A stretch of 64,000 nucleotides of DNA. It comes from Chiloscyllium plagiosum (taxonomy: Eukaryota). The stretch covers positions 69,495,098 through 69,559,097 of the forward strand of contig NC_057718.1 of assembly GCF_004010195.1 (NCBI RefSeq), given 5' to 3'. The notes beneath the pieces were generated by a model. That model saw only the letters and a program-made list of their open reading frames with translations. It ran no database searches and was not told where the DNA came from. This document shows, piece by piece, positions 351-54,395 of the stretch; within the stretch, counting starts at the first letter, position 1, and each line of letters begins with the position of its first letter. The position numbers and the translations under genes are program-made.

Positions 351-698
351 GTTCAAATGTTATTTAGTTATGGAGTTATAAAACAAGGTGGTCTGCACTG
401 CTAGGCTACAATTTGCACCAGATCTCTTTGCTAGATTTTCTTTGCATCCCTTATTAGCTATAAAGACTTAGATCTACACTGGTCCACGTTTGCTTTGTAA
501 CTTGCACTTTTCACCTTGCACCATCATTCCTCATATCTTTAAATTATTTCTTACCTCCACCTATCACACACCTTGCCCTTTTGTTTCTTCCCTCACAGGT
601 TACCAGTTTCCCTGGTACTGTTTATGTCCTCATGTAGATGCTGCCAGGCCTGTAGTGTGTTTCCAGAATATCCTGATTTTTATTTTGCACATACTCAC

Positions 699-2576
699 AT
701 TGGTCTGGAGGAGACTTGCCAAATTTCCGAAACCTTCCTGAACGTAAAAGGTCTCCAATGATATTTGACCTGGAAGGAAATCTTGTCCTTATCCCTGGGA
801 AACGGTGTCGAGGTGAAGATGATGACAGGGGATGAGAAGCAGAAAGCTGTGGTGAAGATGGAAACAAAGGTCGCCTTCTAGCTGTTTCCTTGGAGCTTGA
901 AGAAAGTGAACTTGCTTGCTTCCTGGAGTGTCTTGAAGATGACAGAACCGATGAAGAAGGGACAGACTGAGTCACAAAAGAAGTAACTGGTTTTGTTGGG
1001 TGACTAGCTACAAGTTTTTGTTTGGCACCATTCGGACTTAAGTTAGAATTTCTTAGTTCAGTTCGATGAGTATGTCCCTGTGAAATTGGAGAGGAGGAAT
1101 TTTGGAAAGGTACTGAAGAGAAAGATGGTTTACTTTTACTGTCAGATATTCCAGCATTTGCAAAGTGTAAGGTAGATAGGTGATTTGTTGGCAAAAATGA
1201 ATGTGAATCCTCCAAAGGTCCAGAAGCAGAGGTTAGGATTGATGAAAATGGTTGTGACTGAGAGGAAATGGAAGATGAAACTGGCTTTCTTTCAGCACTT
1301 GATGTCAGCATGGTATTAGAGTGTCTAGAATGTGTACTGGGATTTAATTGTGAAGATTTGTCTGAGTTTCTTGAAGGTATAGAGGAACTCTGAACTGATG
1401 AAGATGGAATGTGCTGCAAAGAACGGTTAGAGCCAGTTAGTTTTCTTTCAAAGTAAGAAGAGGACACCTTCTTAGTATCAGTACCAGGCATGAGCTTGTT
1501 ATTTCTCGAATGAGAGGCAGGATCTGCCCATGAAGTTCTATGATCATTTCCAAAGGATGCTGAAGATGAGGATAACACAGGAGGAGGATTAGGTGGTGGG
1601 GAAACAGAAGAAAATTTTTTTTTTGGCGTTTCGTATACAAGTCTGGTTTTAATAAAACTTGATCCTGTGGCACGACTTCTTTGTGAAGTTGAGTGTGTTG
1701 AAGATATGGAAGCTGGCTTTTTATCATGATCACTGACCACCTTTCTTCCATTAGAATTTGGCCAAGACAGGGAAGCTGCAGTCAGAGAAGAACGTGAATT
1801 TGAAGTTGTTCTTGATAACGGCCGTGCCAATCTAGGATCAGGAGCAGAAAATGACTTTGGTGACTGCGAAACTAAAGTCTGTCTATTCAACGTTGAACCA
1901 TGGTAAGATTGTTTCAGCTCTGTTAAAATGGGATTCTTTTTCATTACATTTACCTCTTTAGCTGCATCTTCTTCCTCCACTTCTACACTTTCCTCATTCT
2001 TATCTTCCTCATTCTTATCTTCCTCTGAAAACATAGCTGATGATTTCACAGAGGGAAAAGCTGACGAAGGCTGTAGTTTAGATGGAACCTGTCTTGGCTC
2101 TTTTATTTCATTTCGTGTTTGAACAGGGAGTGACTCAGACGTTAGTTGGTTTTTAAGACTTACTTTGGAATTTGATATTCTTAGCTGAGTTGGGTTTCTG
2201 TTGAATGGGATTCCAGATGGGGTAGATCTTGTTTTAATCAACAATTGGCCATTTCTGCTGAAACTTGTAGCTGTATGTTTTGATGGTGTTGAGGGAGGGG
2301 AAGGAGGGATTAAGGATGAAGACGACAAATGCAAGCTTTGATTTGTTTTTGTAAAAGAATCAGGTGACTGTAATGATGGTGAACGAGAGGCGGGAAAGAG
2401 AAAGGAAGACTTTCTTGTGTTGGTTCTGAAACCAGAGATGGGTTTAGATGGAAAAGGTGGCAAGCGTGATGAAGGCTTTTTGGGTAAAGATTTGGAGGCT
2501 GAAGATGACTCATATCCTCGCGAAGTTTGAGATTTGTCATGAATCCTATGATGAGTAGTTGCAGCAGTATTATTAC
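699..2576 (-). CDS. FNDC1: FNDC1 large Ser/Pro/Arg-rich low-complexity exon, 1878 bp, phase 1-1
   Basis: Lies within the stop-free 653-codon ORF 622-2583. Polypyrimidine acceptor ttttctctggttttcttggtag (AG at 2578-2577) is in frame with the upstream exon (A|GT = Ser). Donor CCAAT|gtgagt follows ...RSGRFRKFGKSPPDQ. Length is divisible by 3. FNDC1 is known to have one very large disordered exon after its FN3 cluster. Confidence 0.85.
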
Positions 2577-3728
2577 CTACCAAGAAAACCAGAGAAAATT
2601 ATTCAATATAAACACAACCATTTGGTAAGGCTAAATACAAAAACTACTTTTGCATGAAATAACAAAAACAGCATTAAAAAAGACATTAAAAATTTGCAGA
2701 ATTTAAACAGCTGTGCTCTATCATTCAGTCAGAGATTACTTTCTTTACGTTTTCCTAAAATTGGAAGTACCGAGCAAACATTCAAAGATAAGAGGCTAGA
2801 AACTCAGAAGTCATGCAGCAAGCAACGCACAGAAAATGACACCTAATGTTGCACATGGTAGCTGATTAAAATTTCTACTCCAAAATGATGACTTGTTTAA
2901 AACTCAAATGAGAATAGGAAGTGTAAATATCTTATATTAAAGATAAGAGTTGTAATTATTTTATCTGTTTTTCAGCTGCACCTCTCAGCAGATCCTGAGG
3001 AAGATTTTTAAAATTTTAATTGTTTACCTCCATGATGTGAATTGTTTTCTTCCAACTCAGAACGTATTTTTCTTTTCTTTACTAATGTTGGCTTTTATGA
3101 GAATGCAAAACTATAAATTGCAAGTATTCAATGGAACTAATGAGCTAGATCACTTCTGATGGATCAAATTCACCTACTTGATTTATTCCTCAACGCATTC
3201 CCTTAATTAAGCATTGCTGATGTCAATCTGCTCTGGTACCTTGCTCCAGAATTATGATTAATACTGTCCTTGAGCAGTGTTACTGGATACGTTGCTTCTG
3301 AGCTTCTGCATGACCCTGTCTCTAAGTAAAGTAAATCTGCAAAATAAGGGCTCAACTCATTCAAAAACAAAAGTGCCCAACAGATATTGCATATTTTGGG
3401 GTGCTGAGGGGAATGGAAAGAGTTGGAATGTAAGGTACCAGCAGCAATTGAATGTCTACGAGGTGAATCGTATTTAGTACGAAGAATAAGTTTGGGGCAC
3501 AATGGCCCCCTTCATTAATACAACTTTGTAGGCTAAAGAAATACTTTCTGGCTGTAACAGGCTGCTCCTTTTTTAAGGTATTTTAGGTGTTGGAGGCAAT
3601 TTCCTCGAATTCCAGGAGTAGCAATGATTGTTTTATATGCTGTTGCGTTGTTTTGGTACTTTGGAGAAAAAAAAAGTTAAAACAACAGCACTCTTAGAAC
3701 AAACAAAAGAAGGAGATGATGAGGTCAG

Positions 3729-10463: not shown

Positions 10464-10799
<336 letters not shown>

Positions 10800-22689: not shown

Positions 22690-23239
22690 GGTAGATTTAT
22701 ACAGCACAGAAAAGGCCTGCTGGATCGAGTCTGCACTGACACAACTATTCGTCATGATGTGGAGATACCTGATGCAGGAGCAGTGCTCTGAAAGCTTGTA
22801 CTTCCAAATAAACCTGTTGGACTATAGCTGGTGTTGTATGATTTTTAACTATAACTACCAGTGTGCTAATCCCAATTTCCTGCACTTGTTCCATATTTTT
22901 GAATGTTGTGATATTTGAAGTGCTCATCCAAATATTTTTAAAATTTGTAAGGTGTCCAGCCTCTACTACCTCCCCAGGCAGAGTATTCCAGATTCTCACC
23001 ACCTGTTGAGTGAAAATGTTTTTTCCCCAAATTCCCTCTGAATCTCCTGCCCCTTATCTGAAAACTACGCCCTCTCATGGTTGACCCCTCAACCAAAGGG
23101 AACAGCAGCTCTCTATTCACTCTGTCAATACCCCTCATAATCTTACGTCAGTCTTCTCTGCTCTAAAGAAAACAATCCAAGCTTATTTAATCTCTCCTTA
23201 AAGCTTAATTTCTCTATTCCAAGCAATCTTGGTGAACCA
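22690..23239 (-). mobile_element. Old CR1 3' part (continues at 27525 after a younger CR1 insertion)
   Basis: ORFs MRGIDRVNRELLFPLVEGS... and ...ERLNKLGLFSLEQRRL. The sequence resumes collinearly at 27525 (ccctcctctgta). Confidence 0.8.
22755..22850 (+). mobile_element. Penelope-like pLTR fragment (family B) with a decayed hammerhead
   Basis: cctgatgcaggagcagtgctctgaaagcttg...aaacctgttggactatagctggtgttg, homologous to 28676-28767. Confidence 0.75.
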
Positions 23240-26200: not shown

Positions 26201-27524
26201 AGCAAGGCATTTGATAGGGTTCCCCATGGTAGGCTCATTCATAAAGTCAGGTGCTGAAAAGACACAGCAGGCCAGGCTGCATCCGAGGAGCAGGAGAATC
26301 GACGAATTCTTCAGGAGAATTCCGGAAGAAGGGCTTATGCCCGAAACGTCGATTCTCCTGCTCCTCGGATGCTGCCTGGTCTGCTGTGTTTTTCCAGCAC
26401 CACATTTTTCAACTCTGGTCTCCAGCATCTGCAGTCCTCACTTTCTCCTCATTCATAAAGTCAGGAAATATGGGATACAGGGAGATTTGGCTATCTGGAT
26501 TCAGAATTGGCTGGCTGACAGAAGGCAGAGAATGATTGTAGATGGAAAGTATTCTGCCTGGAAGACAGTGTTGAGTGGGGTCCTGCAGGGCTCTGTTGGT
26601 GGGCGTCTGCTCTTTGTAGTTTTTATAAATGACTTGGATGAGGAGGTTGAGGGGTGGGTTAGTAAATTTGCAGGCTACAGCGTGACATAAACAAGATGCA
26701 GAGCTGGGCTGACAAATGACAGGTGGAGTTCAACCTGGATAAATGCAAAGTGATACATTTTGGAAGGTCAAACTCGAATGCTGAATATAGGATTAAAGAC
26801 AGGATTCTTGGCAGAGGGATCTGGGTGTGCAAGTGCATAGATCCCTCAAAGTCGCCACCCAAGTGGATAGGGTTGTTAAGAATGCATATAGTGTTTTGGC
26901 TTTCATCAACAGGGGGATAGAGTTTAAGAGCCGTGAGATTTTGCTGCAGCTCTACAACTCCCTGGTGAGACCACACTTGGAATATTGTGTCCAGTTCTGG
27001 TCGCCCTACTATAGGAAAGACACAGAGGCTTTGGAGAGGATGCAAAGAAGGTTTACCAGGATAGTGCCTGGACTGGAGGGCTTGCCTTATGAAGAAAAGT
27101 TGAATAAGCTTGGACTTTTCTCTCTGGAGAGAAGGAGGAAGAGAGGAGACCTGATCGAGGTTTACAAAATAATGAGAGGAATAGATAGAATCAATAGCCA
27201 GAGACCTTTCTCCAGGGCAGGACTGACTGGTACGAGAAGTCATAGTTTGAAGATATTAGGAGGAAGGTTTAAAGGAGACATCAGAGGTAGGTTCTTTATG
27301 CAGAGAGTTGTGAATGCATGGCATGCGTTGCCAGCTGAGGTGCTGGAAGCGAAGTCATTGGGGACATTTAAGCGACTGCTGGACATGCACATGGATAGCA
27401 GTGAGTTGAGGGGTGCATAGGTTAAATTACTATATTTTACATTAGGATTAATTCTCGGCACAACATCGTGGGCCAAAGGGCCTGTTCTGTGCTGTACTTT
27501 TCTATGTTCTGTGTTCTATGTTCT
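23240..27524 (+). mobile_element. Apparently full-length disabled CR1 LINE nested in an older CR1
   Basis: ORF1 from about 23454 (Cys finger DYICGKC, zipper, esterase VVGDST/LCCLPGARV/VHIGTND). ORF2 endonuclease (CVSFNARSV, ITETW, GDFNIPNIDW) and RT to 27420. (ttctatg)n tail. Confidence 0.93.
26252..26447. mobile_element. Penelope-like inverted pLTR fragment (family A) inserted in a CR1 RT
   Basis: TSD ctcattcataaagtcagg at 26234-26251 and 26448-26465. About 55-bp inverted arms. Hammerhead-like motif at 26323-26350 with U4 changed to G. Confidence 0.88.
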
Positions 27525-28635
27525 CCCTCCTCTGTAACCCCTCCAGTGCTGTCACATTCTTCTTGCAGTGCGGCGACCAGAACTGTATATAGTACTCCAG
27601 TTGTGGCCTGACCAACGCTCTGTACAACCCCAACATCATCTCCTTGCTCTTATACTCTATGCCACGATGAAAGCAATTATCCTATTTGCCTTATCTATTC
27701 TATTCACATGCTCTGCCAATTTCAGGGATATGTGAATAATTACCACAAGATCCCATTATTACTTTAAGTTACCGAGTGTTGTGCAATTCATTAAATACTC
27801 ATCTTGTTTCTTCTTCCAAAGTAAATCACCTCTCACTTAGCTGGGTTAAATGCTATCAGCCTGGTCTGCCCATCTGACCAACCCAGCTATATCGTCCCGT
27901 TACCTACAAACCATCTTTTTTGCTATTAGCCTATCTACCAACCTTGGTGATGACTGCAAATTTGCTTAACATTCGCCCATATTTTCATCTACTTCATTTA
28001 TGTATATAACAAACATTAAGGGTCCCAGTATTGTTCCTTGTGGACACCGGCCTCCAGTCACTCAAACAGCCTTCTACCACTATCCTTTGTGTCCTATTAC
28101 TAAGCCAGTTTCTGATCCATCTCACCAAGTTTCCCTCAATTCTATGTGCTTATACCTTTTCAAACAGTCTCCTATGTGGGATGTTATCAAGAGCTTTGTT
28201 AAAATCCATTTCAACTACATCAACTAAACTTCCCTCATCTACATAGTTGATCATATTTTTTTCAAAATTCTAACAAATTTGTTAAGCATGACCTCCCTCT
28301 CCAATAGTTTCCCTACCACTGACATGAGATTCACCAGCCTGTAATTTTTGGGTTCATCTCTACCAAAAGTGGAACCACATTTGCCATCTTCCAGTCCCCT
28401 GGCACTTTCTCCATCGCCAGAGAGGAATTGAAAATTTGTGTCAGAGCCGCCTTCAATTTCGGCTCGCCCCCCACAGCAATTTATCCAGGCCAGGTTATTT
28501 GTCTGTTTTTAAGCCTGACAGAGCCTACAATACCTCCCCTGTGCAAGATTCGGAGATGCCGGTGTTGGACCAGGGTGTACAAAGTTAAAAATCACACAAC
28601 AACAGGTTATAGTCCAACAGGTTTAATTGGAAGCA

Positions 28636-28670
28636 CACGAGCTTTCGGAGCGACGCTCCTTCATCAGGAT
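28636..28670 (-). ncRNA. Minimal hammerhead motif on the FNDC1 sense strand (intact core, weak stem I)
   Basis: AUC-CUGAUGA-A-GGAGC-GUC-GCUCC-GAA-AGCU-C^GUG. Only one stem I pair forms locally. Confidence 0.65.
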
Positions 28671-28673
28671 AAT

Positions 28674-28708
28674 CACCTGATGAAGGAGCGTCGCTCCGAA
28701 AGCTAGTG
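28674..28708 (+). ncRNA. Minimal type I hammerhead ribozyme motif (intact core)
   Basis: CAC-CUGAUGA-A-GGAGC-GUC-GCUCC-GAA-AGCU-A^GUG: stem I CAC/GUG, 5-bp stem II, palindromic AGCU in place of stem III, cleavage triplet CUA. Confidence 0.82.
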
Positions 28709-29695
28709 TGCTTCCAATTAAACCTGTTGGACTATAACCTGGTGTTGTGTGATTTTTAACTTTGTACTCCCCTGTGCAAGTTCATCACAGTCTGTTTTCC
28801 TCAATTCTATACAAACATTCTCTTTTTCCAGAGTGAAGACTGAAGAGAAGTATTCATTCAATACCCTTCCAATAACCTGAAGCTTCACATACAGGTTGCC
28901 CTCTTGGTCCCAAATGGGCTCTACACATTCCCTTTAATGTACTTATAACATATCTTTGGATTCTCCCCAATCCTGTTTGCAAGTCCTTTCTCATGCCCCC
29001 TTTTGCTCTTCTAATTGTTTTCTTAAGTTCCCTCCAGCATTCCCTGCATTCTTCTAGGGCTGCAGATGAATTGCCCCCTTTGGACTTGCTAAACTCCTAC
29101 TCTTCTTCCTTATCCACTCCTGAATTGTTCTAGATATCCAGAGTTCTCTGAACTTATTGCTCCTAAATTTCCCTCTAAAGGGTACATGTTGGACCTGTGC
29201 TCTCTCCAGCTTCTTTTTGAATGCTCCCCATTGCTTCATAAGGAGCTATTCTTAGTCTACTGTGGCCAGATCCTGCTTTATTTTAATAAAATCTTCCTTA
29301 TTCCAAACCAAAGCAGTATTTTGAAGACCATCTTTTTCCACATCCAGAACATATCTGTACCATGATGTGTTGTGGTTGCTATCACTAAAATGATCCCCCA
29401 CTGCTACATTGAACACTTGTCTGGCTTCATTCCCAAGAACCATATCTAGCACTACACCATCCCTTGTTGGGCTTTCTATGTGTTGATATAAAAAAAACTT
29501 CCCTGGATATGTTTCAAGAAATCCGCTCTTTTGAGACCCTTAATGCTATGACAATCCAAATTTACGTTGGAAAAGTTGAAATCCCCTAGTATAATTACCC
29601 AATTCTTACTCATACATATTTCTATGTACTGTCTACATGTTTGCTCCTCTTTTTCCTGCTGACTCTTTGGAGGTGTATAATACATTCCCAGTATT

Positions 29696-29790: not shown

Positions 29791-29861
29791 AAAGAACAAG
29801 CCCAGTTTGTTCAACCTTTCCCCATAAAACACTTGCTCATTCCAGGTATCAATCCTTTTCA

Positions 29862-29990
29862 GGGAGAAAGTGAGGACTGCAGATGCTGGAGATCAGAGCT
29901 GAAAATGTGTTGCTTATGCCCGAAACGTCGATTCTCCTGTTCCATGGATGCTGCCTGACCTGCTGCGCTTTTCCAGCGACACATTTTCAG
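29862..29990. mobile_element. Penelope-like inverted pLTR fragment (family A), hammerhead truncated
   Basis: 14-bp TSD atcaatccttttca (29848-29861 and 29991-30004). An antisense part is followed by a sense part starting at tatgcccgaaacgtcg. Confidence 0.85.
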
Positions 29991-30027
29991 ATCAATCCTT
30001 TTCAATCAGTCGATTGATATTCATTAA

Positions 30028-30520
30028 TCAATTGATGTCCCTCTTGGTCTGTATGTGCAAAGATGAGGGAGAGTGGATCACATCATTTAGTAGCCCATTG
30101 GTGTTCGTGAAGTCAGATGGCTAATTTTCTAAATGATATGATCCATTCTCCCTCATCTCTGTACATACAGACCAAGAGGGCCATCGATTCAACTATGACA
30201 AAGCAACCATTCTAGGACAGGCCAACCAGAGACACGCAAGAGTGTTCTTGGAATCCTGGTTTTCAACCAAAAAGGCCATCAACAAACACAAAGATAGACC
30301 CAGTGTTCAAACTGCTGCAGAGAAGACCTGGAAGTGACACTCACCCCAACAGACCAGACCACATAAAACCCATGCCGAACAGAACAGCACTTCATGAAAG
30401 TCACAATGATGATGTTACCCAGCATGGTAACAAAACGTCAGCACAATAACTCAGCAGCTCGGCAAGCTAACCAACTACCGCATCCACAACCTGAGCTACA
30501 GATCTTCGCAAAAACCTTAA
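30028..30520 (+). mobile_element. 3' end of a third Penelope-like family (GIY-YIG C-terminus plus decayed hammerhead) with a 5' inverted duplication
   Basis: From about 30137 reads YDPFSLISVHTDQEGHRFNYDKATILGQANQRHARVFLESWFSTKKAINKH. Motif aUGAUGA-U-GUUACC-cagcau-GGUAAC-aAA-ACGU-C at 30406-30439. About 60-bp inverted arms at 30028-30090 and 30129-30190. Confidence 0.75.
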
Positions 30521-34110: not shown

Positions 34111-34229
34111 GATGTGGAGGAGCCAGTACTGGACTGGGGTGGACAAAGTTAAAAATCACATAACACCAGGTTATAGTCCAACAGGTTTATTTGGAAGCAC
34201 TAGCTTTCGGAGCGCTGCTTCATCAGGTG
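34111..34229 (-). mobile_element. Penelope-like pLTR fragment (family B), hammerhead stem II deleted
   Basis: Homologous to 28548-28668. Has cggagcgctgcttcatcagg instead of the longer stem II. Confidence 0.82.
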
Positions 34230-34292
34230 TTTTATCATGCAAAATGTTTCAAAAGTGGAATTCAATGACATATATCTCTGTGCTTAAGCATA

Positions 34293-35995
34293 GATGTGGA
34301 GGTGCAGGTGTTAGACTGCGGTGGACAAGGGCAGAAGTCACATGACACCAGGTTTATAGTCCAACAGGTTTATTTGAAATTTCAAGCTTTCAGAATGCTA
34401 CTCCTTTATCAGATGAAGTGAAGAAAAGCACACAGGCACAGAATTTATAGGCTGAGATCAAAAGATCATACAAATGGTGTGAGTGGAGTGTCGATAGCTG
34501 AGTAATAAGTATCTGCAGATGATCAAAAATGTCAGACAGTGTGAGTAAAGTGTCAACACCTGAATAGCAACTGAAGGGATGACCTATAGTTCAAATAATT
34601 GAGTCAGAGAGATAATTACAAAAAGTTAAAAATAAGGTGGTGCTGGAGACAAACCAAATGGCTGGAATAACATGATAGGTATGAGTCACATGCTGATGGT
34701 CTAACCAAAGTAGCAAGTAATCCAAAACTATACAAACTAATTAAGGTAGAGAGATCATAGCAAATTATCAAGGTGATAGTGCCAAAACAAGACAGTAACA
34801 TTTCACAGATACAGAACAGTACGGTGGGGTTAAATGTAGCACAACATGAACCCAAGATCATGGTTGAGGCTGTCTTCATGGATACGGAACTTGGCTATCA
34901 GTTTCTGTTTGGCGATCCTGCATTGCTGTGTATCTCAAAGGCGGGCTTGAAGGATGCTTACCCAAAGAATGTCCTTGACCACTGAAGTGTTCCCTGTCTG
35001 GAAAGGAACAATCCTGTCTGGCAGTTGTGCGGTCGGGAGTGTGGTGCTGAAAAAGTGTAGCAAGTCAGGCAACATCCGAGGAGCAGGAGAATGGACGTTT
35101 CGGGGGAAAAGTCTTTTATTAGGAATGATTGTTGTGCAGTGTCCTATCATTTGTTGTTGTAGTATCTGCATGGTCTCGCCAATATACATGCCTCAGGGCA
35201 TCCTTGCCTGCAGCATAGGAGGACAACGTTGGCTGAGTCACATGAAAATCATCCTTGTACGTGGTGGGTGGTGTTCCCACATGTAATGGTAGTATCTATG
35301 TCGAAGATCTGACATGTCTTGCAGAGCTTGCTGTGATAGGGTTGTGTGGTGTTGTAGTCAATTTTATCCTGAAGGCTGGGTAGTTTGCTGCGAACGATGT
35401 CTACTTGGTAATTTGGCAGTTGTTTGAAGGGGAGAAGTTGGGGCGTAGGGATGATCTTGGCGAGATGTTTGCCGTCATCGATGACATGTCGAAGGCTGCA
35501 AAGAACATGGTGTAGTTTCTCTGCTCCAGGAAAGTACTGGACAATGAAGGGTACCCTATCAGTCATGTCCAATGTCTGCCTTCTGAAGAGGTCATGGCAC
35601 ATGAGACGTGGTGATCGATGAGTTGAGCATCATATCCCATTCTTATGAGAGCATTTTTCAGCACCTTTAGGTCTGTTGCATTTCTCCTTGTCTGAACAGA
35701 TCCTGTGTATACGCAGGCTTTGTCCATAGGTGATGGCTTCTGAAACATGTTTAGGGTGGAAGTTACAGAAGTGCAGCATCATGAAGGTTTTCCGTGGGCT
35801 TGTCATAGAGGAAGGTAGTGAGGTGTCCATCCTTGAGGTGTTCAAGAATGAGACTAATTTTGAAGCGTAGTCCATGGTAAGTCTGATGGTGGGTTGCAAC
35901 TTGTTGACATCATTGCGTAGTCGCTTCAGTGATTCTGTACTATGAGTCCAGAGGAAGAAAATGTTGTCAATGTATCTGGTGTCTAGCATTGGTTG
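34293..35995 (-). mobile_element. Penelope-like retroelement (Neptune-type) 3' portion: RT C-terminus, linker, GIY-YIG and pLTR; disabled
   Basis: Minus-strand ORF remnants RYIDNIFFLWTH...PTIRLTMDY...VSFL (RT), FHPKHVSEAITYGQSLRIHRICS (thumb), DRVPFIVQYFPG...CKTC (linker) and YIGET (GIY-YIG). A family-A pLTR piece is nested at about 35035-35127. Confidence 0.9.
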
Positions 35996-36056
35996 GAGGA
36001 GGCATGGTATATTGGTGAGACTATGTAGACACTATGACAAGGGATGAAAGGACATC

Positions 36057-36519
36057 ATGCAACAACCACCAGACAGAAACGTTCTCTCCCAGTTGGGAAA
36101 CACTGCAGTCGTCAAGGACATTCAGCCTCTGATCTTTAGACAAGCGTTCTCCAAGCCAGCCTTTGAGATACACAACAATGTAGAATCGCATTGCATAACA
36201 ATACTATTTTGTTCAAAAAGTACACAGTCTGTAGGCAGTCAGTCCATGTGACACTTTATAAATACCAACTTTGGAAACAGAACAGTCTGACTCAAGGTTG
36301 GGATACAGATAGACTCTAACGTCACATCTTTAATGCATTGTCTGAGCTGAGATGTCACTTTTTTTATAAAACCTCAAGTTATTCCAAGGACTGTGACTTG
36401 AAAGAAGTTCTGGAATTTACATATTAATCAATCAAAATCTGCAATCCCATTCTAACTGCTCAAAGACTTAACAGCAATTTTGGTTTGTTCAATACATCAC
36501 ATCAGTTGTATGACACTTT
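36057..36519 (+). mobile_element. Plus-strand Penelope-like segments (36057-36188 is an inverted copy of 34915-35030; the rest is a 3' region split by the L1)
   Basis: Reverse-complement similarity to 34915-35030. The sequence resumes at 40562 after the L1 TSD and runs into a family-B pLTR. Confidence 0.7.
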
Positions 36520-39500: not shown

Positions 39501-40544
39501 TACAGGAACAAAGTCAGGCAAACAAAGTAAACAGGGAGAACAAAGGAAATAACATAGTCCATAGTATTTAACCCAAAAAATCTATTTTAAGTTATCTAGG
39601 AAATCCTTTGCCCTTTCCGCTGAATCAAAATTATGCATAGATCCTTCATGGCTGAAGAACAACACTGCAAGGTACCTTGGAGAATACTGATTGTTCAAGT
39701 ATTCTCAGCCTCTTCTTTACTTCATCATAAGTTTTCCTCTTTCTGATCACAGCCCCAGGAAAGTCCTGAAAAAGCATGATTTTCGGCCCCTTGTAGATCA
39801 GGGCTTGTGGGTCTTTCCCCAGCATTCTGGAAGCTTCCATAGCCATTTGTTTATCTGTGCAACACTGAAATTGTGCTAGGACTGGGCAGGGGCGCTGGTT
39901 TGATCCAGGCCTGTGCACCACGATCCGGTGAGCCCGCTCAACTCACACCTGGCCTGATTTGGCTTCCAGCCCCAAGAGCTGTGGGAGCCATTGCTCCAGG
40001 AAGCTGACCAGCTGACTTCCCTCCTCTCGCTCCAGTGATCCGATAATGTGGACATTTTTTCTCTGACCTCAATTCTTGGGGTCGTCAACTTGCTTGATCA
40101 AGGCCTGCACCTGTGTTTCCAGGGCTTGAATCCACCCTGCCAGTCTCTAACACCATGGTTCGCTGCTCCACCTCCTCCACGCGCTGCCCGAGATGTTGGA
40201 TCTCCTGCTCATTCTTTTGTAGCATGGCCGAGATTGGCTCCAGTCTGGTCCGGGACTCCTCCATTGCTGATTCAATCTTCTCTTGGAGTTTTATGAACTC
40301 TAGACCAAACTCTGTTGCTCGGGTGGGTTCAAAAAGCACCTCCGCAGGAATTGGTGCTGCAGATGTGGGTGTGTCCATTGCTGCAGGGGAGTGCCTGTGT
40401 GCTGTGATCCACGCAGCCCTTTTCTTTTAGTCATCTTTCCTAAACATTCAAAGTAAGGGGAGGGTGAAATCATCACTCTGCCTGGATTATGGTGCAGAGT
40501 CCAGCAAAGCAGACCTGTTAGATCATCGCCATCTTGAATTCCTC
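36520..40544 (-). mobile_element. L1-clade LINE with an intact 5' end and internally deleted ORF2
   Basis: Perfect 17-bp TSD cagttgtatgacacttt (36503-36519 and 40545-40561). ORF1 from ATG 40434 (coiled coil; RPCPVLAQF...KIMLFQDF). ORF2 from ATG 39058 (WCTWNING, IIGGDVNC, TRIDIFF, GKPPGPDGFPSEFYK, RPISLLNVDFKILSK, LYADEVLL). AATAAAAAA at the 3' junction. Confidence 0.93.
40527..40536 (-). promoter_or_regulatory. YY1-type motif CAAGATGGCG at +9..+18 of the L1 5' end
   Basis: The element starts GAGGAATTCAAGATGGCG. The motif matches the YY1 consensus and the position of the YY1 site in mammalian L1 promoters. Confidence 0.55.
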
Positions 40545-40561
40545 CAGTTGTATGACACTTT

Positions 40562-40945
40562 GATCTTTTACTATAAATTCTGTGTCCTCTGATCCTGCCT
40601 CGCTAGTTGCCTAATGAAGGAGCAGCACTCCAAAAGTTTGTGCTTCCAAATAAACCTGTTGGACTATAATCTGGTGTTGTGTGATTTTTAACTCAAATTA
40701 ATCAGATTATAGGTCACCCCTTCAGTTGCTATTCAGCTGTTGACACTTTACTCACACCATCTGATACTTCTGATTATCTGCAGAGATTTATTATTCAGCC
40801 ATTTGTATAATCTTCTGAGCTCTCTACCTATAAATTCTGTGCCTGTGTGTGTTTCTTCACTTCACCTGACGAAGGAGCAGAGCTCCGAAAGCTTGAGATT
40901 TCAAAACAAACCTGTTGGACTACAACCTGCTGTGACTTCTAACTT
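40562..40945 (+). mobile_element. Two Penelope-like family-B pLTR segments (40562-40692 and about 40700-40945)
   Basis: Both end in aaacctgttggacta.... 40700-40945 is an inverted counterpart of about 34330-34595. Confidence 0.85.
40862..40898 (+). ncRNA. Minimal hammerhead motif (intact core)
   Basis: UCAC-CUGACGA-A-GGAGC-AGA-GCUCC-GAA-AGCU-U^GAGA, with one mismatch in stem I. Confidence 0.72.
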
Positions 40946-40949
40946 TAAA

Positions 40950-42988: not shown

Positions 42989-43963
42989 TGGTATAATAAA
43001 ATAATGATCTGCAGATGTTGGAAATCTAAAACAAAAACAGAAATTGCTGGAGAAACACAGGTGGCCTGCCAGCATCTGTGGATAGAAAAACAGACACATT
43101 TCTTTAGAACTGGACTTAAAATTTCTGGATAGTATTTCCCAACAGAAGAAATGAACCTGAACCAGTGCTGGGAACTTTTTTTCTTTTTATTCATTCATAG
43201 GATATGGGTGTCACTGGCTGATTAGCATTTTTTGCTCGTCCCTAGTTGCCCTTTAGAAGGTGGTGAGGAACTACCTTCTTGAACTACTGCAGTTCACCTG
43301 CAATCAGCAAAAAAACCCAACAGATTAAAGTGGCAGTAGAAAGTGAGCAGGAGTGTTGTTGAGAAAAGTGAGTTTAGAAGAGGAAGGCAAGTACAGCAAG
43401 AATTACAGTGGGAATAAAAGTATGGCAGCAGCCAAATCTCACAAGAAGGTTCCAGAAAGAGTAACTCAAAACAGGCAGTAATTCAAAGACTGAAGCCAAA
43501 ATAAAGTCAGAAAGAATGCAGTGAGGAAGGAGAGGCCAAACCTGAGGGATCTAGCACTATGATCAAGGATAAGAATTGAAGCAAGCATCTCACATCAAAG
43601 AGAAGGAACTACAAAAAAAATGAATTGGTCCTAAAAGGAGTGAAGTTTTAAATGTAAACAATGTTTTTAGAAAGTTTAAATTTGTTTCTTGATAAGATCA
43701 GCACGCTTAACAAACAAAAAGGAAGACATCTCAGCCCTATACAATACACATTCAGATGCATGTGTGTGTGCATGCATGTGAATTCCAGGATACTTTTTGT
43801 GCATGAAAATATTTTCTTTTATACACTGTGAATGGTTCAGACCTGTAAATAACTGACTGGGACTGTGGTGGGGCTAATTCCATTGTGACCTTTTAGAAGG
43901 GAATTGGAGAACTGAACTGAAATGAATTGCAGGGCTACAGAAAAAGGGCAGATCAGTGAGAAT

Positions 43964-44174
43964 AGGAGAAAGTGGAGACTGTAGATGTTGGAGATCAGAG
44001 TTGAGAGTGTGGTGCAGAAGAAGTCGCACACTCAGCACACGCCTCTTCTCCACCATATCGGACACAAAAGAACATAGCCATTCCTGATGAAGGGCTTATG
44101 CACGAAACGTCGATTCTCCTGCTACTCAGATGCTGCCTGACTAGCTGTGCTTTTCTAGCACTACACTCTTGACT
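43964..44174. mobile_element. Penelope-like inverted pLTR insertion (family A) with a hammerhead motif at 44084-44111 (+)
   Basis: 15-bp TSD cagatcagtgagaat (43949-43963 and 44175-44189). CUGAUGA-A-GGGC-UUAU-GCAC-GAA-ACGU-C: core intact, one stem II mismatch. Confidence 0.87.
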
Positions 44175-46206
44175 CAGATCAGTGAGAATGACTGAGTTAC
44201 ACCTGCACACACAATCTCCTCTATGCTGATTGGTAATTATGATCACAAGAGAGGGAGATGCTGGCAGACTATACACAAGGATAGTAATGTCATACTACAC
44301 TCCAGCCACAATACATTGTCGGTGGCAAAGAACAGTCAATAAATCCTATAATTTGTGGGGCAGCACAATGTGAAAAAACAAGACCATGAATGCTGACTAA
44401 TTGTTGAAAATGCTTATTCTGGTGTCTTTCAAGAAACTTATTACCTCCATTTGGTTCTAATTCGATACTTTGTGATTGACTTTTAAACCCCTTTAGGCAA
44501 ACTATGCATGGAAAGAGATGCGCATTTTTAATATTTTCAGGTCATTCAGGCTTATGGTTAATAAAAGAAGTTTGATTTGTTAACTGCTGCTGAAATAGTG
44601 GGAAAAGTAGCAACCACCTACAGGGGAGGGGCAGACAGGTAGTGCAGGAGTCCCCTGTGGCTATTCTGCTATCAAACAAGTATACTATTTTGGATACAGT
44701 TTAGGGGAATGGCCTCTTAGGGGAAGGCAGCAACAGCCAGATCAGTGGTGCCACAATTGACACTCCCTGTTGTATAACAATGCCAAAGTGCAGATGAGCA
44801 ATAGTGGTAAGGAATTCTATAGTCAGGGGCATGGATAAACACTCTTGTGGCTATGAGTGAGAGTCCAGGATGATGTGTTGCCTCGCTGCTGCCAGAGTCT
44901 CTGAGCAGGCATAGACATTATGAAAGGGGAGGATGAACAGCCAGAGGCCAAGGTCCATATTGATATAACTAGAGAGAGATGTAGTCCTGCAAAAGGAATT
45001 CATCGAGTTAGGTAGAAACCTGAAAAGCAGAATCTCTAGAATTGTAATCTTAGCCTTACTCCCTATGTCACTTGCTAGCAAGGTCAGAAATAGAAGTCAA
45101 CACAGTTGAATGCTTGGCTAAACAGCTGATATAGGAGAGAAGACTTCAGATTATCTGAACCATTGGGATACCTTTCAGGACATTAGGGACCTGTACAAGG
45201 AGGACAGGTTGCCCCTAAGCTGGAGGGACACCAATATTCTTAGTGCTTTGCATGTGACACTCTGGAATATTTGAACTAATGTGACAGGGGTATGGGAAAC
45301 AGCAGTAGGTAAGCATGTGGAGTGACTGAGCAGAAGGTACATGTTGAATGAAGTGTATTAGGAAGAATAGGCAAGGCCAGGTTAATGGACACAGCAGGAC
45401 TGACAGTCTGAAGTGTATTTACTTTAATGCAAGGAGTGTAACAATTTAAGGCAGGGTAAAAACAATGACTGGAGATGCTGGAAACCATCTTTTGGCATCC
45501 CCTGGATGCCAAAAGATATTGAAAGTTTAGCAAAATGGTAAAGAAAGCATATGTAACGTTTAGGAAATTGAACTCAGACATGTCCTTGAGGATATAAAGG
45601 AAGCAAGACAGAACATAAACAATAAATTAGGAGGGCTAGATGAGGCCATAACATGTCCCTGGTGGTAGAATTAAGGAGAATCCCAAGGCATTTTACACGT
45701 ATACTAAGAGCAAGAGGGTAGGTGGTGAAAGGATAAGTCCACTCAACGGCATAAGGGGAAATGTGTGTACGAAGCCAGAGGAACTGGGGGAGGTCCTTAA
45801 TGAATATTTAACATTGGCATTCATCAAGGTGAAGAACATGGATGATGGCAAGATTAGGGCAGGGCATATTGATATCTTAGGGCATGTCAAGGAGATAGTG
45901 GTATTGGGTGTCTTGAAAACATTAAGGTAAATAAAGTCCCCAGGGCCTATTGGATTCTATCCAAGGATACTGAAGGAGGCAAGGGAAGAGACTGCTGGGA
46001 CTTTGACAGAGATCTTTGTGTCCCCTTTAGCCACAGGCAAGATCCCAGAAGACTGGAGAACAGTCAATGTTATTCCTTTGTTTAAGACAGTCAACAGGGA
46101 CAATGCTAGAAATTATAGGCTGGTGAGCCTGCCATCAGTGGTCTGGAAATTATTGGAGAATATTCTTAGTGACAAGATTTACTTGCATTTGCAAAAGAAT
46201 GGACTT

Positions 46207-52580: not shown

Positions 52581-54048
52581 CACGCTTCTCTATGTTTTAC
52601 TCCATCTGACATCTTGTTGCCTGCTTACTTAACATGTTTACATCCCTTTACAGTTTTTTTTCCCCCATGACCAGTGAATGCATATTCTTGGTATCTTTGC
52701 CAAAGGCATTAACATAGCTTGAAAATAGCTGAGGCCCAACTACACTATAGTGCAAACATGAAAAGGTCCCCTTTTATCATCTATTACTTGTCTGCCCATT
52801 CATGCCCTTTTGAAATTTTACACTGTTCTCAGATTTCTAATTTTTAAAAAAAAATTGGTGAATTTTGTGAATTTGTTCTTTATGCCAAAATCTACGTCAC
52901 TAATATATACTAGGAAAATCAGGGATCAGAAATTCTAGGGACTTGCACTTTTGAAAAAAATATTGTTTACCATTTCCCATTATTCAGCCAATTTTATGCC
53001 CATAATGCTACTGTCCTTCTATTCCTGGTGTATATTGACTTACTTGTTTACTATACATCAAAAAACCTTTGGAAGCCCATGTACACAACATCATTAACCC
53101 TCTGTAATATCATTTAAAAAAAACATCAGCAAGGTAGTTCAACACAATTTGCATTAACAAGTCATGTCAGTTTTCTTCAATTAACATTTGCCAAAATATT
53201 AATTTTTTCCCAAATTATTGACTCTAAACTTTTCCCCACTATGGTTAAATTCATTGGCTTGTAGTAAAAATTTGGCAAACATCACTTTTGTTCAGTACCA
53301 TCCAAGTCTAAAGATTATTCAAAACATACAGTCAACAGATCGACAATTTCATTCTCACTTCCTTCAGAATCATCAGATGTATCTTATCCATTCCTGGCGT
53401 CAAATCAAGTTTAAGCACAGACAGCTAACCAATACCTCTTCTTTAACAATGCTAAATACTTTAGGTGTCTGGACAAATGCACACTTGACCCACTGTTCAT
53501 TGGTGGTGGAAGAAGTGAAAATTGAAGGTGGGGAATATAGTGCCAGTCAAGTGGGATATTTTGCCCTGTATACTGACAAACGTCTTCAGTGTTAGTGGGC
53601 AAATTGACAATAGTTAATCATGTTGGTTGTGATGGGAATACCACGGAGAAATGGTCTATGTCCTGGACCACTCTGTCTTTAATGTAAGGCTCAATTTATT
53701 GCAGTCCCCTGAAGTGCTGAATGAATCAATTGTCTTCATCTCCCCTACCAGTAATCTGGACACAGTCATATTAACTTCAATTCTCTGTAATAGATTATGT
53801 TAGTATATATAACATTAACAAAGTACTGTTTGTTTAGCAGTTTATATCTCAGAGTTTTCCCTCAGCACATCTTGATTATTTTACCAGTTACATCACTGAC
53901 AGACTTATATTAATTCCTTATTCCAAATCAGCCTCCAGGCTCGTTGTTTGCTGTGTACATAGGCTTTGGAGGATCATAAGATACAGCTTCCCAGCCTCTG
54001 ACTGCTTCAAGACACAGTGATGATATGACTAGTCTAATTCAGTTTCTA

Positions 54049-54225
54049 AGAGAAAGGGAGGACAGCAGATGGCAGAGATAAGAATTGAAAAGTCACTGTG
54101 GCACTGGAAAACACAGCGGGTCAGGCAGGAATGCTGCTGAAGGGCTTATGCCCGAAACATCGATTCTCCTGCTCCTTGGATGCTGCCTGACCTGCTGTGC
54201 TTTTCCTGCACCACACTTTTTGACG
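54049..54225. mobile_element. Penelope-like inverted pLTR fragment (family A), mutated hammerhead at 54134-54161
   Basis: CUGcUGA-A-GGGC-UUAU-GCCC-GAA-ACaU-C. Imperfect TSD ctaattcagtttcta / ctaatttctagtttcta. Confidence 0.8.
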
Positions 54226-54395
54226 CTAATTTCTAGTTTCTAGTCAATGGTAGCTCCCAGGATGCTGATAGTGGAGAATTCAGTGACAATGTTGAATGTC
54301 AAGGCTACATGATAGGATTCTCTCTTGTTGAAGATGGCCATTGCCAGGCACTTCTGTGTTGTGACTATAACATTCCATCTATCAAGCTATATCTT

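Follow-up and report, generated by a model that had tools for sequence, protein, structure and literature searches.

A 219-bp palindrome with a hammerhead motif on each strand in an FNDC1 intron of Chiloscyllium plagiosum is most likely a truncated Penelope-like element insertion

Published units of Penelope-like elements (PLEs) consist of head-to-head inverted pLTRs with a tail of 30-40 nt on one end and a TSD (PMC3846280; PMC8557442). The minimal hammerhead ribozymes (min-HHRs) of such elements have a helix I of 4-5 bp in Schistosoma and 2 bp in D. virilis, and opposite-strand pairs 100-700 bp apart are already known (PMC4209133). They cleave weakly and as dimers (PMC4209133; PMC6765202), or with the PLE protein (PMC11167929). 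The PLE protein of Anolis nicks and extends both strands, reverse transcription (RT) starts at two sites between which the tail lies, and hammerhead cleavage is not required for insertion (PMC11167929). Non-LTR retrozymes are head-to-tail tandem units with a hammerhead in each (bioRxiv 10.64898/2026.07.22.740005) and have been reported in a chondrichthyan (bioRxiv 10.64898/2026.07.22.740005; PMC7229834). The main-text portion of PMC4209133 considered here includes no shark example, though its supplements may contain some, and literature searches for shark PLE hammerheads returned nothing specific.

The stretch of C. plagiosum DNA analysed here (64,000 nt of contig NC_057718.1, referred to as the window) includes exons of FNDC1, located by tblastn on the minus strand at 33687-33496, 12731-12621, 10721-10521 and 2589-694. 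For the exon at 10521-10721, FNDC1 proteins of sharks were the top relatives (91-92 %). The large exon at 694-2589 (minus strand) is of low complexity, with about 630 codons and 58-64 % identity to other sharks. The palindrome lies between the first two exons, which bears out its earlier placement in an FNDC1 intron, and is 4.7 kb from the nearer one. The features of the locus are as follows.

12732 to 33495, minus strand: FNDC1 intron of about 20.8 kb that holds the insert, with the exons at 33687-33496 and 12731-12621 on either side.
28041 to 29028, no strand assigned: old LINE-like remnant split by the insertion; the RT-bearing repeat near 58100-58990 matches it at 66-74 %.
28534 to 28547, plus strand: left TSD, 14 bp, the final G of which is also the element's end (1-nt microhomology); from the repeat and from loose ends of reads starting before 28547.
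28548 to 28576, minus strand: 29-nt PLE tail, on the left arm only; from alignment to the tailed copies at 34111 and 34292 and from read ends that cluster at 28547/28552 and 28581/28583.
28577 to 28668, minus strand: left arm, a pLTR 3' segment with its 5' end 1 nt upstream of hammerhead C3; from arm comparison, copy alignment and reads.
28669 to 28675, plus strand: 7-nt spacer ATAATCA; from the consensus of the loose ends that follow 28668 (runs X4 and X15).
28676 to 28766, plus strand: right arm, the same pLTR segment without the tail; from arm comparison and copy alignment.
28767 to 28780, plus strand: right TSD; from the direct repeat.

The two copies of the 14-bp direct repeat CTCCCCTGTGCAAG (28534-28547 and 28767-28780) are identical and enclose an insert of 219 bp (28548-28766). 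When 3000 random pairs of 40-mers lying 233 apart in the window were compared, 0.17 % had an exact match of at least 14 bases. The arms, 28577-28668 and 28676-28767, differ at two of 92 pairs (28602/28742 and 28639/28705), with pair number 92 borrowing the first base of the right TSD. The insert length, the perfect TSD and the two arm differences, all given in the earlier note, were thus re-derived. The left arm has 29 extra outer bases, and the right arm lacks these but begins 7 nt further upstream, since the spacer matches the upstream sequence of the family at six of seven positions and can be assigned to the start of the right arm. There is no microhomology at the junction. At the outer end of the right arm, the target resembles the continuation of the element at nine of 14 bases (P = 0.002). 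Both arms end no more than 8 nt from the hammerhead core, resulting in a near-symmetric 219-bp unit with no ORF.

Four of 24 listed sequencing runs were compared with 28350-28675, the region made up of the left flank, left arm and spacer. They include X23 (raw reads of organism B, probably a related organism and not the species of the window, 1,874 million letters) and X15 (contigs of another organism). A contig in run X1 continues from the flank through the tail to 28577 with one difference, and the insert is therein present. In a contig of organism B (run X4), the flank aligned with five differences in 198, the alignment stopped at 28547, exactly the end of the TSD, and other letters followed; the insertion site in organism B is probably empty. 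The divergence between the arms (2.2 %) is no greater than that of this flank (2.5 %), which fits a recent insertion.

The link to a PLE comes from a second element in the window.

34292 to 35998, minus strand: decayed, 5'-truncated PLE with RT and GIY-YIG remnants that ends in a related pLTR and tail, matching the left arm at 74 % over 123 nt.

Its remnants match proteins that have the RT motif YIDD, a CX4CxxC linker and a VVY..C...C..YIG endonuclease and, as its 3' end shares 74 % over 123 nt with the palindrome, the end of the palindrome can be recognised as that of an endonuclease-positive PLE. At this level of identity the element belongs to a related subfamily and is not a demonstrated source of the palindrome. 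The element was identified from motifs and tblastn; with Pfam, the remnants at 34292-35998 gave no domain, and only one of five relatives gave a match, a weak one to RVT_1. The CX4CxxC linker in the relatives would probably place the element in the Neptune or Nematis clade, following the description in PMC8557442 and not a tree. An inverted piece of the endonuclease region (35999-36189) lies at the 5' end of this PLE, and a stub from a second family is inserted in it at 35037-35127. A 23-base motif of the palindrome's family had no matches in metagenome contigs.

The palindrome resembles the EN+ PLE units (Arkhipova et al. 2013, Craig et al. 2021), which also have inverted ends, a one-sided tail of about 30 nt, a variable TSD, strong 5' truncation and a hammerhead in the pLTR. 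All the marks of these units that were tested were found here, namely an end shared with an element carrying RT and GIY-YIG, inverted pLTRs, a tail of 29-30 nt on one side and a TSD of 14 bp. It differs in being a palindrome without any ORF, with neither arm extending more than 8 nt past the hammerhead core. An inverted, PLE-derived insertion with minimal, dimer-type cores had been suggested earlier and this description holds. The 219-bp insert can most probably be classed as an ordinary truncated PLE insertion. Specifically, it is very probably made up of two head-to-head copies of a hammerhead-bearing PLE end that arose in one abortive insertion and are unlikely to move again as a unit.

The window was surveyed using BLAST with the copies it contains, together with inspection, and six head-to-head insertions in two families were found. 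Two, at 28534 and 22754, are from the family of the palindrome. The remaining four (26234-26465, 29848-30004, 43949-44189 and 54034-54242) are from a second family that has a different hammerhead with an ACGU palindrome. A TSD of 13-18 bp, one of them degenerate, was located for five of the six, and the insertion at 22754 yields only 6 bp. All six have different centres. Exactly one end carries the tail in every case (P = 0.016 if the ends chose independently), and the tail-less arm is the one that extends further 5' in five, with the two about tied in the sixth. In the 22754 insertion, an inverted tail of about 13-16 nt is joined (22751-22850) to a tail-less arm that starts 2 nt upstream of C3. 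The copy at 26234 lies within a LINE RT frame, which it disrupts, and helix II has been lost from one of its arms.

The 5' ends of 19 arms from the two families were scored by eye, excluding the small piece at 43045-43082. Nine are within 8 nt upstream of C3, two are inside the hammerhead, four are short and four are far upstream, though in three single-arm cases an unrecognised subfamily upstream sequence could mimic an arm start. The pile-up at the hammerhead edge has P = 2e-7 against a uniform 150-nt null, a value to be read with the interval having been chosen after looking and the queries having included the hammerhead. None of the 19 arms starts at a cleavage site.

Two further arrangements in the window were noted. 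At 40544-40946, two decayed pLTR pieces on the same strand, each with a hammerhead remnant, lie about 250 bp apart and form a partial tandem that is nearer to the layout of a retrozyme than the palindrome is. The region 30021-30510 belongs to a probable third PLE-type family and includes an inverted repeat of 70 nt (30021-30090/30129-30198), after which comes a hammerhead-like motif, now decayed, near 30405-30450.

The reads of run X23 give a broader view of the family. Of these, 49,073 aligned, and the depth was about 12,000 on the core, with a peak of 42,000, compared with 0-2 on the unique flank, from which more than 10,000 copies of the family can be estimated for organism B. Outer ends followed by unrelated flanks form two clusters about 35 nt apart, at 28547/28552 (5,979 + 2,420 reads) and 28581/28583 (2,241 + 2,217), corresponding to the tailed and tail-less ends. 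Among the 15 joints listed of 252, 14 connect opposite strands, at varied places from 28596 to 28668 (1,024 reads). Both arms reach 28668 in 69 reads from 43 start places, and double-core palindromes are on this count a recurring product. In run X1, contigs with joints at 28596/28636 and 28625/28668 have about 8-10 times the depth of the single-copy flank and may represent recurrent or amplified junctions in organism A, with 28636 and 28668 being clip points of the alignment reference and not necessarily true junctions, and contigs breaking at palindromes. Joints at 28633-28636 were considered as truncations at the cleavage site, which is unproven, as alignments are also clipped there by a frequent 2-base deletion and by differences between subfamilies, and the arm starts in the window provide no instance.

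The two hammerhead motifs are located as follows.

28639 to 28667, minus strand: minimal type I hammerhead core, sense in FNDC1 pre-mRNA, with H17 = C and a helix I of 1 contiguous bp; from motif scan and folding.
28674 to 28708, plus strand: minimal type I hammerhead, antisense to FNDC1, with its core at 28677-28705, H17 = A and a palindromic AGCU; from motif scan and folding.

Each strand reads CUGAUGA-A-GGAGC(GUC)GCUCC-GAA-AGCU-H, where H is A on plus (28705) and C on minus (28639). The cores are of the min-HHR kind (Cervera and de la Pena 2014, PMC4209133), which is type I with an extra base after A9, G10.1-C11.1, a loopless palindromic helix III (AGCU) and a short helix I, and the min-HHR core CUGANGA...GAAA...UH with palindromic 15.2-16.2 is present on both strands. 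They differ from min-HHRs in being buried in a hairpin, with a helix II of 5 bp and a helix I of 3 bp (plus) or 1 bp (minus). The former claim of an intact core on each strand can therefore be kept for the conserved nucleotides but not for helix I, which is of the short type on the plus strand and too short on the minus strand, where its 5' strand is cut off by the junction. As FNDC1 is on the minus strand, its pre-mRNA holds the damaged motif. Each strand of the insert has a single sense motif, with no tandem hammerhead on the same strand, and no second intact minus-strand motif was detected by motif scan of the 64-kb window. In the same 64 kb, Rfam gave no matches at the gathering threshold. 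A permissive search gave seven, all far under the cut-off, the best local ones being generic hairpins (44.5 of 81 bits), and no Rfam hammerhead model matched up to E = 10.

Importance had also been attached to the arms having different, permitted bases at the cleavage site. The base of the plus arm, A, is found at H17 in 86 % of the family reads in run X23, hence the C of the minus arm looks like a private change, and two of the three possible changes from A are permitted anyway, so this observation carries little weight. Both arm differences in fact place the left arm outside the read majority (at 28602 and 28639), and are minority states among the X23 reads. Decay of CpG within the core, at 28646/47 and 28651/52, is seen in 16-18 % of the family reads, as expected of neutral debris.

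Folding of the palindrome gave a predicted energy of -183 kcal/mol (z = -26), and none of 200 shuffles was equally stable, in line with the long hairpin that had been proposed for a transcript. A competition between this hairpin and an active ribozyme, proposed at the same time, finds no support in the model. The open hammerhead state is calculated to lie about 54 kcal/mol above the hairpin ensemble, these energies being from an equilibrium model with no protein. On both strands the antisense arm is 7 nt ahead of the sense core and, because it is transcribed first, a transcript that ends 8 nt into the core is already predicted to fold best as the hairpin. Read-through RNA is thus predicted to zip into a 92-bp hairpin that locks both motifs. 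With this hairpin, and with each strand offering a single sense motif of a kind dependent on dimers, the hammerheads of the insertion appear to be passengers.

In L1 twin priming, two target nicks prime two cDNAs, which are joined head-to-head within the TSD. The L1 arms copy different parts of the RNA, whereas the arms of the palindrome copy the same 91 nt, and strand displacement or two RNAs would therefore be needed. In a twin-priming mechanism adapted to a PLE, which we rate at about an even chance provided that the insertion is a PLE stub, the PLE endonuclease would nick both target strands, 14 bp apart. The first nick would prime RT at the inner start site, producing the tail-less end with the aid of pairing between target and RNA, and the second would use the outer start site of that RNA, displacing the first cDNA by the strand displacement activity of RT. 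Both cDNAs would halt at the 5' edge of the hammerhead, and the two cDNA ends would then be joined without microhomology. Twin priming on one RNA would account for there being one tail per insertion and for the tailed arm being the shorter, and the tails on one end in six of six insertions and the nine of 19 arms with 5' ends at the hammerhead edge agree with it.

The two end types of the palindrome are like the two RT start sites that delimit the tail in Poseidon of Anolis carolinensis (Frangieh et al. 2024). Head-to-head products are not treated in the portion of that report considered here, and initiation there occurs without target homology (PMC11167929), in contrast to the nine of 14 bases at one end here. 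This finding counts against a pairing-aided start, as does the absence of target-element similarity at three of the eight tail-less ends in the window and its borderline level (P 0.04-0.06) at another four, which are all of those other than the end of the right arm. The pile-up at the hammerhead edge could plausibly result from a nearby transcript start, by analogy with D. virilis, where transcription of Penelope begins 46 nt ahead of an intron (PMC2377424) whose end is at helix I (PMC4209133). We also propose, tentatively and with more doubt than confidence, that these stubs may be a genomic record of the inverted-end step of PLEs, in which both nicks prime one RNA at the tail-delimiting sites, with displacement, and run-off at the 5' edge of the hammerhead marks either the 5' end of the RNA or a fixed stop.

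Plain copy-back of a target-primed cDNA was rejected as it cannot give a 29-nt tail on one arm and a 7-nt spacer on the other. A different route to the same PLE stub would have the mirror arm made by snap-back self-priming into a hairpin intermediate, with the tail of the first strand trimmed by the endonuclease before or during integration. Self-priming on an antisense template has been proposed for head-to-head PLE repeats (PMC3846280) and the tail has been ascribed to EN-mediated resolution (PMC8557442). Snap-back predicts one tail, a tailed arm that is no longer 5' than its partner (five of six, and the tie) and the spacer orientation observed, and the centres of the 22754 and 29848 insertions show an overlap of 3 nt. 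However, the centre of the palindrome has no pairing bases to prime a fold-back, the nine of 14 target similarity suggests priming at the tail-less end, and both ends agree with the RT start sites of the Anolis system (PMC11167929). Overall, this route is a serious competitor but less likely than not, with slightly better odds, still short of even, among PLE-stub explanations alone.

The twin-primed or otherwise formed stub is distinct from what had been envisaged earlier, a self-contained retrozyme-like unit. That claim is not supported, given the six different centres of the six window insertions, the many different joints in reads and the lack of a tandem same-strand hammerhead. Non-LTR retrozymes are likewise small, non-coding and PLE-derived with a type I hammerhead, but the palindrome, with its arms head-to-head and a single sense motif on each strand, falls outside their definition. 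LTR retrozymes differ further, with a type III hammerhead in direct LTRs and a 4-bp TSD, against type I, inverted arms and 14 bp here. It is also very improbable that the palindrome as a whole is a non-autonomous mobile unit with a fixed centre, copied by PLE proteins. Though it is young and clean, with double-core reads of many origins in X23, and sequence can be mobilised in trans by PLE ends (PMC3846280), not one of the 15 joints listed of 252 (X23) starts in the spacer (28669-28675), the depth of the spacer is a tiny fraction of that adjacent to it (73 vs 11,945, or 0.6 %, in X23; 618 vs 491,955, or 0.13 %, in X1), and its centre is shared by none of the other five window insertions. Moreover, its RNA would be a closed hairpin with both start sites hidden. 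Unique inversion junctions, which the earlier note took as the sign of an ordinary truncated insertion, are what the window contains; genome-wide they are favoured, not proven.

It is equally improbable that the insertion serves or has served the host in FNDC1 pre-mRNA, whether as a ribozyme switch or as a regulatory hairpin, through editing, small RNA or intron cleavage. The insert is within an FNDC1 intron and its RNA would provide 92 bp of dsRNA, but it is remote from the exons, embedded in an old repeat, probably absent from organism B and one of thousands of similar copies. The motif in the pre-mRNA has no proper helix I, Rfam miRNA matches were far under their cut-offs, and incidental editing would be no proof of function. 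Lastly, an assembly artefact or a product of recombination or repair after insertion is scarcely credible, since, although assemblers struggle with inverted PLE structures (PMC8557442), the whole unit is bracketed by a perfect TSD, the arms are unequal in length with two site differences, the X1 contig spans unique flank, tail and 28577, and opposite-strand joints are present in raw reads.

As one of thousands of dead PLE ends, the locus itself is of little weight. The origin of the inverted ends and one-sided tails of PLEs has been named as an open question (PMC8557442), and it is as a class that these insertions, with one tail each, a shorter tailed arm and 5' ends at the hammerhead edge, bear on it. 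Shark introns would hold many long perfect hairpins, a potential dsRNA load. If the stubs do record two nicks priming on one RNA, a shark genome with thousands of such junctions would allow the model to be tested by sequence alone.
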